From: an uncultured Methanomassiliicoccales archaeon
Lineage (GTDB): Archaea; Thermoplasmatota; Thermoplasmata; SG8-5
Direction: 5' to 3'
DNA: 50,588 bases
Assembly: GCA_938004075.1 (NCBI GenBank)
Contig: CALKWP010000127.1
Location: forward strand, 1 to 50,588
The translations under genes were made by a program, and so were the position numbers. Below the pieces are notes generated by a model. It did no database searches. It worked only from the letters and a program-made list of their open reading frames with translations, and was not told where the DNA came from. Positions 29,827-30,036 of this stretch are shown in pieces. Position 1 is the stretch's first letter. Each line of letters opens with the position of its first letter.

Positions 29827-30036
29827 GGGCTCATAGGGTAGCTAGGATATCCTGCCGGTCTTCGGAACCGGCGACCGGGGTTCGAACCGAGGCTTGAAGT
29901 GAATTTCACAATCTCCAAGCTAAACGAAAGCCGAGGCGCGGACGACTCGCGAAGCGATTCGCCCAGCGCCCACGTCGAACGTGTTCGACGTGATAGAACC
30001 AAATTCGTTGCTTCGACGAAAATCCCCGTGAGCCCG
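29827..30036 (+). tRNA. tRNA-Arg(TCG): tRNA-Arg(TCG) interrupted by a 136-nt intron in the T-loop (about position 59/60)
   Basis: The 5' exon 29827-29886 contains:
- acceptor GGGCTCA
- D-arm with G18G19
- anticodon stem CCGGT/ACCGG (29855-59 / 29867-71)
- loop CTTCGGA, anticodon TCG at 29862-64
- T-stem CGGGG followed by TTCGAA

The 3' exon 30023-30036 is T + CCCCG + TGAGCCC + G. It completes the T-loop as TTCGAAT, the T-stem and the acceptor perfectly. A T-run follows at 30040-30044. The spliced length is 74 nt. Confidence 0.8.

Follow-up and report, generated by a model that had tools for sequence, protein, structure and literature searches.

We analysed a stretch of DNA of 50,588 nucleotides (the window), in which a tRNA-Arg gene interrupted in its T-loop lies between genes for a P-type cation ATPase (26973-29816) and a class IV aminotransferase (30732-31625). 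A Ras/Roc-family small GTPase gene (26040-26951) stands before the ATPase gene, and four giant open reading frames occur in the window (788-6901, 7464-13817, 16551-25739 (+) and 40135-45792 (-); 2037, 2117, 3062 and 1885 amino acids). The best homologues of the ATPase carry the labels Candidatus Thermoplasmatota or Thermoplasmata archaeon and are 76-93% identical to it; an exact look-up of the protein returned no record. Homologues of the aminotransferase, with 70-87% identity, are labelled Methanobacteriota, Thermoplasmatota or Euryarchaeota archaeon. By their sequences, the neighbouring proteins point to Thermoplasmatota as the source of the window.

Table 1. Features of the tRNA-Arg gene, in window coordinates. 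BHB, bulge-helix-bulge; a slash between bases marks a predicted cut.
Feature	Position	Strand	Basis or remark
Upstream motif CAAACAATAAAT, putative BRE/TATA-type archaeal promoter	29790-29801	+	Promoter role suggested by position only
5' exon, tRNA positions 1-59	29827-29886	+	ARAGORN on spliced sequence
Acceptor 5' strand	29827-29833	+	In the 5' exon, which also holds the D-arm, anticodon arm and variable loop
Anticodon TCG	29862-29864	+	5' exon
T-stem 5' strand	29876-29880	+	5' exon
T-loop nucleotides 54-59	29881-29886	+	End of 5' exon
Central 4-bp BHB helix, 5' strand U54 U55 C56 G57	29881-29884	+	Pairs with CGAA at 30017-30020; constrained and unconstrained folds; invariant and paired in 4/4 lineages
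5' bulge A58 A59 / C, predicted cut between 29886 and 29887	29885-29887	+	Folds; cut position predicted from BHB geometry
Intron, 136 nt, position 59/60	29887-30022	+	Relatives: 124, 31 and 34 nt at the same site
Inner helix h', 5' strand CGAGGC	29888-29893	+	Pairs with GCUUCG at 30010-30015 (6 bp); fold
Intron 3' end: h' 3' strand, spacer A30016, CGAA 30017-30020, 3'-bulge bases 30021-30022	30010-30022	+	Folds
3' exon, T-CCCCG-TGAGCCC-G	30023-30036	+	Identical in all 4 lineages
U60, third base of 3' bulge	30023	+	First base of 3' exon
T-stem 3' strand CCCCG	30024-30028	+	3' exon
Acceptor 3' strand TGAGCCC	30029-30035	+	3' exon
Discriminator G73	30036	+	3' exon
T-run TTTTT, putative terminator	30040-30044	+	At least 4 T after the 3' exon in all 4 lineages

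The 5' part of the gene, GGGCTCA...CGGGGTTCGAA, has its last base at 29886 and reads GGGCTCA TA GGGT AGCTAGGATA TCCT G CCGGT CTTCGGA ACCGG CGAC CGGGG TTCGAA. The exact 13-mer TCCCCGTGAGCCC, which complements the T-stem and acceptor strands, has a single occurrence in the 50.6-kb window, at the 3' exon, which carries no encoded CCA. When 29886 was joined to 30023 in silico, the product was a 74-nt cloverleaf that ARAGORN called as tRNA-Arg(tcg). All four arms are present, with 7 bp in the acceptor stem and 5 bp in the T-stem, and the 7-nt T-loop is TTCGAAT. The spliced molecule has G18, G19 and A20 in its D-loop and G73 as discriminator, which we take to fit an arginine tRNA as identity elements for ArgRS.

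Without splicing, the gene was called neither by ARAGORN nor by Rfam at gathering score, and a permissive Rfam search returned only a partial tRNA match of 14.9 bits at 29827-29895. The sole tRNA that these two tools reported in the window was tRNA-Thr(TGT), on the minus strand at 30435-30511; a low-stringency ARAGORN 'tRNA-Stop' with a 143-nt intron, also on the minus strand, was judged spurious. As a specificity control we ran a scan built on splicing itself, in which all BHB-like site pairs in both mirror arrangements, with introns of 12-320 nt and on both strands, were collected from the window and 12 loci, and each of the roughly 30,000 candidates was spliced in silico and then given to ARAGORN. 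The only new tRNA in the window was the 29886/30023 product, and tRNA-Arg was the one disrupted tRNA gene found there. Non-canonical introns are searched by default in the archaeal mode of tRNAscan-SE 2.0 (PMC8450103).

We compared the window with three relatives, giving four distinct sequences. L001 (JGI 3300037047), whose ATPase is 93% identical to that of the window, has exons at 9984-10043 and 10075-10088 separated by a 31-nt intron. In L002 and L003 (both GCA_018900055.1), and also in L016 and L028, the gene is encoded on the opposite strand and its intron has 34 nt. L039 and L040 (ENA; aminotransferase 86% identical) have exons identical to those of the window and a 124-nt intron. The 5' exon is 100% identical in L001 and L039 and matches at 57/60 positions in L002, and the exons overall are 95-100% identical among lineages; the three differences in L002 are C4 to U, where a G-U pair is retained, and a compensatory replacement of C-G by U-A in the anticodon stem. 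The 40 nt upstream of the gene agree with the window at 39/40 positions in L039, 34/40 in L001 and 30/41 in L002. An exact anticodon-arm pattern scan of genome and metagenome contigs gave no match, and a relaxed scan returned only the L002 lineage again (L016, L028) and ordinary bacterial tRNA-Arg genes, from Patescibacteria and Pirellulales. Among contigs reached through the neighbouring proteins, ATPase contigs L033 and L034 were not syntenic, and aminotransferase contigs L035-L038, L042 and L043 had tRNA-Thr and lacked tRNA-Arg.

All four lineages have the upstream motif, as GCAAAC(A/G)ATAAAT, and its ATAAAT lies at -31 to -26 from the mature tRNA-Arg 5' end. Its first part, the 10-mer CAAACAATAA (29790-29799, or -37 to -28), has an exact reverse complement at 30511-30520, immediately next to the 5' end of the oppositely oriented tRNA-Thr. 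The two tRNA genes are not equally spaced from the motif; the pair is probably not a chance match, because the relatives keep the motif at both places.

A bulge-helix-bulge forms at the junctions. When the cloverleaf pairs were imposed, the minimum-energy fold on the T-arm had the layout given in Table 1, with the T-stem as an invariant 5-bp outer helix h (29876-29880 with 30024-30028) and A30021 A30022 U30023 (AA/U) as the 3' bulge. The unconstrained minimum-energy fold of T-arm plus intron has the same layout in the window, L001 and L002; in L039 the same register is possible, but at minimum energy A58 is paired with the spacer, so that the helix has 5 bp and the bulge 2 nt. The 3' bulge is pure, and in all four lineages the 5' bulge faces one unpaired base (a 3x1 internal loop), which is A in the window (A30016) and U, G and A in the others. 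The fold thus has two 3-nt bulges on opposite strands, each with a splice site, the 4-bp helix UUCG:CGAA between them, and flanking helices h and h' that are maintained in evolution. It departs from the strict hBHBh' form, which requires two pure 3-nt bulges that face no unpaired base. As modelled, the motif is near-strict, not strict, and lies outside the described relaxed classes HBh', hBH and BHL, in which a bulge or a flanking helix is missing. A cut after the second base of each bulge would place the intron at 59/60 exactly.

To assess the pairing across lineages, we used a gapless alignment of the exons and intron ends from the four sequences, with 27 modelled pairs. All 27 form in all four, while in a control with the 3' partners slid by 1-3 columns pairing reached only 36-61%. 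Changes on both sides of a pair were found at one anticodon-stem pair and at two of three h' pairs (CG/GC/UA and AU/CG), and the first three h' pairs are kept in every lineage. The 3' bulge is AA/U, or AC/U in L002. Beyond the ends, short and long introns share no alignable sequence; constraint on the intron is limited to its ends.

These results agree with much of an earlier note on this DNA. Its reading of the locus as a tRNA-Arg(TCG) with a 136-nt T-loop intron is borne out by the in-silico splice, the folds and the three other lineages, and the exon ends that it gave, with 30023-30036 as the sole completing sequence followed by a T-run, are as it described. It had placed the intron at about 59/60, where the BHB geometry also puts it, and had asked for the junctions to be folded, which yielded the motif with and without constraints; its suspicion that default finders would be blind to the gene fits the behaviour of ARAGORN and of Rfam at gathering score. 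The recurrence of the intron start, CCGAGGCTT, that it had noticed is present, at 30133-30141 and not 30132; it is not conserved and is best explained by chance, about one 9-mer repeat being expected in a region of such size. We took both CCGAGGCTT at 30133 and the inverted CGTGAGCCCG at 30122 as chance matches; the two lie in one downstream hairpin that differs in sequence yet stays paired in L001 and L039.

That hairpin lies in a conserved, apparently structured non-coding region between tRNA-Arg and tRNA-Thr (about 30060-30330 in the window, 10110-10350 in L001, 5450-5700 in L039). Three hairpins of the region differ in sequence and are paired across lineages, for example CCCCGGGC-TCAC-GCCCGAGG versus CCCTGCC-CTGACA-GGCAGGG, and RNAalifold on the three sequences gave 9 pairs with both-sided changes. 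The region has a highly conserved core, CGGGGCATGAT..TGGCCGGTG..GTGAA..TGGATG, plus two copies of ATGRRGTTGGMCGGTGCC; it matched no Rfam family at threshold, with weak matches to HgcC and sR32 only.

The intron interior is rich in hairpins, including a perfect 10-bp palindrome at 29971-29992. It matched no Rfam family, open reading frames overlapping it had no Pfam match, and it had no other copy within the window or in 0.4 Mb of loci. We considered several known kinds of insert. Box C/D small RNAs carry a C box (RUGAUGA) and a D box (CUGA); the intron (29887-30022) has no CTGA D-box, no C/D boxes and no snoRNA-type Rfam match, and we rejected a guide RNA of the tRNA-Trp type. A self-splicing group I intron has a conserved ribozyme core, is usually longer than 200 nt and usually sits in the anticodon loop; it is excluded because 136 nt is far too short, and the T-loop site and the lack of an Rfam intron match, even at E up to 10, likewise do not fit. 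In split or permuted tRNAs the halves are encoded apart from one another or in inverted order, and each half has a promoter of its own, while the exons here are collinear on the plus strand, 136 nt apart, with one promoter-like motif and one T-run. An integrated element with att duplication was also rejected: no flanking direct repeat of the tRNA was found, the window holds no second copy of any tRNA-Arg segment, and no integrase domain was detected among the window ORFs scanned. EndA and RtcB domains were likewise not found among the 19 window ORFs scanned.

The window and L039 have sister alleles of the tRNA-Arg gene: in the 40 nt upstream they agree with each other at 39/40 positions, but with L001 at 34-35/40. 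Their long introns align end to end, and each has a second GCCGAGGC in its interior and a covarying hairpin with GATA after it. The simplest history is therefore that a short intron, such as those of L001 and L002, gained its extra 90-100 nt in a single expansion. An origin by tandem duplication, with units of 44 and 92 nt each starting CCGAGGC, was not supported (global similarity z = 0.6), nor was a likeness to the short introns (z = 2.2 only for unit 1 against the L001 intron). A 7-mer repeat within 136 nt is the chance expectation, yet the second GCCGAGGC is found in L039 too.

A hairpin-rich insertion of about 75 nt near tRNA-Thr, which we call ThrUp, is found at 30551-30625 in the window and 5240-5315 in L039 (78% identity between them) and is precisely absent from L001. 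It is flanked by GTAGC/GCAGC, lies between a duplicate of the tRNA-Thr 5' end and the intact gene, and shows no evident BHB at its ends. The best non-self matches of a ThrUp profile lie inside both long introns and have the same orientation on the chromosome (nhmmer E = 0.017 and 0.33); Smith-Waterman comparison of ThrUp with the two introns gave z = 4.6 and 5.2; in the window, the stretch with the weak resemblance is 29930-29966 (z = 5.2, E = 0.33). This likeness of ThrUp to the long-intron interior is suggestive. Scans of viral contigs for the intron palindrome, the exon, ThrUp and the tRNA-Thr duplicate gave no match.

The duplicate itself comprises the first 20-24 nt of tRNA-Thr(TGT), CACTGTGGCATAGCTCGGTAGCGC, at 30624-30647 on the minus strand, upstream of the intact gene, and it also occurs in L001 (10497-10525), L039 (about 5215-5345) and L035 (about 11140-11215). 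It lies just downstream of a conserved TATA-like TTTTTATACA (30691-30700); in L002 the same TATA-like promoter directly precedes tRNA-Thr, without a duplicate. Each duplicate matches the tRNA-Thr of its own genome (GTGGCATAGC in the window, GTAGCTTAGC in L035). An integrated element may have left the duplicate as an att-type scar, or the duplicate may be a structured 5' leader. In L005-L032, from Patescibacteria and related bacteria, the tRNA-Arg(TCG) 3' end GACCGAACCCCTGCGGGAGCACA is often repeated 150-200 nt downstream, which looks like att sites of integrated elements.

Gene order around the locus also varies. In the relatives (L001 4001-9956; L002 818-6766), the Ras-like GTPase gene and tRNA-Arg are separated by two P-type ATPase paralogues in tandem, and the tRNA-Arg gene is inverted in L002. 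The window has one P-type ATPase only, which ends 11 nt before tRNA-Arg and reads through the promoter-like motif. Near tRNA-Thr, L039 is 88% identical to L001 and about 47% identical to the window. The tRNA-Arg locus has undergone rearrangement and is mosaic between lineages.

We consider it very probable that the locus works as an archaeal tRNA-Arg(UCG) gene and that its T-loop holds one protein-spliced intron, between positions 59 and 60. From the sequence, the fold, and the conservation and covariation in four lineages, we infer how it would be transcribed, which enzymes would act on it and where exactly they would cut. Transcription would start from the TATA-like element about 30 nt upstream and stop at the T-run. 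In the precursor, U54-G57 of the T-loop would pair with CGAA near the intron 3' end, building a BHB from the T-stem, the 3-nt bulge AA/U60, the 4-bp helix, the bulge A58 A59/C and the inner helix. The archaeal splicing endonuclease EndA would cut both bulges, after 29886 and after 30022, and an RtcB-type ligase would join the exons into a 74-nt tRNA with the T-loop UUCGAAU, to which CCA would then be added. Because only the ends are constrained, the interior would drift and the length shift, giving alleles of 31-34 nt on one side and of 124-136 nt in the window and L039 on the other. Against this reading stand the departure of the motif from the strict form, the Thermoplasmatota affinity of the neighbouring proteins, the failure to find an EndA gene in the window and the small number of distinct sequences compared, four.

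Other readings of the locus can be set against this one. That the two halves are unrelated and match by chance, or belong to a split, permuted or group I-interrupted tRNA, has nothing to recommend it beyond the lack of a call by standard finders, and we regard it as wholly improbable: the 13-mer complement is exact and unique in the window, the halves are collinear on one strand 136 nt apart in an arrangement that three other lineages share, and Rfam gave no intron family. A disabled pseudogene, with foreign or repetitive DNA in its T-loop and a working copy elsewhere, would suit the hairpin-rich 136-nt insert and its weak resemblance, at 29930-29966, to the 75-nt insertion beside tRNA-Thr. 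However, the insert is at exactly the same site in four lineages with perfectly conserved exons, the UUCG:CGAA helix and both 3-nt bulges are kept in 4/4, h' has undergone compensatory changes, and the upstream motif and T-run persist; decay would not hold such features across alleles whose introns are otherwise unalignable. Fixed exons and a fixed splice geometry with compensatory changes around a free interior are what a functional protein-spliced intron predicts, which argues strongly against a pseudogene, and we think one very unlikely.

Less easily dismissed, although we still hold it to be unlikely, is that the intron is real and its long form has a second function, as a stable small RNA or a mobile-element copy, so that the 124-136 nt would not be neutral drift. 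The whole-length alignment of the two long introns, with their shared second GCCGAGGC, hairpin and GATA, is in its favour, as are the ThrUp profile matches in both and the absence of ThrUp and long intron alike from L001. Against it, the intron has no Rfam family and no C/D boxes, no further copy was found in the 50-kb window, the 0.4 Mb of loci or the viral contigs, and the likeness is weak, from two sequences that cannot separate shared ancestry from selection. A further suggestion, which we hold to be just as unlikely, is that a Thermoplasmatota lineage, in which one would expect an alpha'2 enzyme confined to canonical introns, stably keeps a T-loop intron whose BHB has a constant extra unpaired base, and that the four-fold longer alleles arose from an inserted hairpin-rich element of about 75-100 nt.

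For the protein-spliced intron, the enzyme deserves comment. The earlier note held that a relaxed-specificity endonuclease was required. This is not established, since two 3-nt bulges, a 4-bp helix and both flanking helices are present, and with a motif so close to strict hBHBh' such an EndA is not clearly needed. Whatever their context, canonical BHBs in archaeal rRNA and mRNA are cut (PMC5829648), and by analogy an ordinary alpha'2 EndA may be sufficient for this near-strict T-loop motif. According to reviews, however, Euryarchaeota with alpha4 or alpha'2 EndA have introns at canonical positions only, and the cluster of Thermoplasmatales, Halobacteriales and Archaeoglobales has alpha'2 EndA only (PMC4090602, PMC5829648); the known relatives of this Thermoplasmatota host are reported with that enzyme and with canonical-position introns alone. 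The note had also offered the intron as a clue to lineage; it would mislead here, because the flanking proteins lead to Thermoplasmatota and not to TACK or DPANN, where such introns are common.

A BHB intron at 59/60 is of a known kind, because this is a documented non-canonical archaeal position (PMC4090602), used for instance in tRNA-Cys and tRNA-Pro of ARMAN-2 (PMC3239211); the host lineage is less expected, and our literature search turned up no off-position tRNA intron reported from Thermoplasmatota. ARMAN-2 resembles the present case in the T-loop site, the BHB-type motif and the failure of ordinary tRNA finders. It differs in being a DPANN archaeon with a broad-specificity epsilon2 endonuclease and more than half of its tRNA genes disrupted, whereas here the host is Thermoplasmatota-like and a much longer intron interrupts the Arg(UCG) isoacceptor. 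A 2014 review put intron lengths at 11-129 nt, with medians of 12-25 nt (PMC4090602), and this intron, which the note called unusually long, is at or above that range. In the Thermoproteales and other Crenarchaeota, too, introns outside 37/38 are protein-spliced, only their BHB ends are constrained and they turn over fast among close relatives, and intron transposition has been proposed for them (PMC4090602, PMC4033280); those genomes have an (alpha-beta)2 EndA and many introns, often with relaxed motifs and with medians of 12-25 nt, while we see one intron in the window, with a near-strict motif and a length of 31-136 nt among alleles. The archaeal tRNA-Trp intron is likewise unusually long and removed through a BHB (PMC4090602), but it sits at 37/38 and carries a box C/D guide RNA, unlike the 59/60 intron with no C/D boxes and no Rfam match. 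The BHB sites of archaeal pre-rRNA and of some mRNAs, which archaeal EndA cuts wherever they are located (PMC5829648), lie outside tRNA bodies and do not use T-loop nucleotides as a strand of the central helix; this one is inside a tRNA and does. The case is notable for its host lineage, for the extra unpaired base that the motif conserves, and for an intron length that is at or above the upper end of the 2014 range and differs four-fold between close alleles.

For annotation, the genome would be scored as lacking tRNA-Arg(UCG), because standard finders miss the gene, and completeness estimates and codon-usage inferences would be distorted for related uncultured archaea. In the accepted picture, off-position introns are tied to (alpha-beta)2 or epsilon2 endonucleases and lie outside the Thermoplasma/Halobacteria/Archaeoglobus part of the Euryarchaeota. 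With its conserved 59/60 intron, this Thermoplasmatota-like lineage offers a concrete case on which to test the co-evolution of intron and enzyme. The allele set of 31, 34, 124 and 136 nt, at one site between almost identical exons, is a natural series for the growth and shrinkage of archaeal tRNA introns. If the tentative suggestion of a stably kept intron enlarged by an inserted element were true, either EndA specificity has broadened in Thermoplasmatota, which has not been described, or the natural substrate range of the alpha'2 enzyme is wider than assumed, and the element beside tRNA-Thr would be small and mobile, with tRNA loci as its targets, and would do no harm inside an intron.
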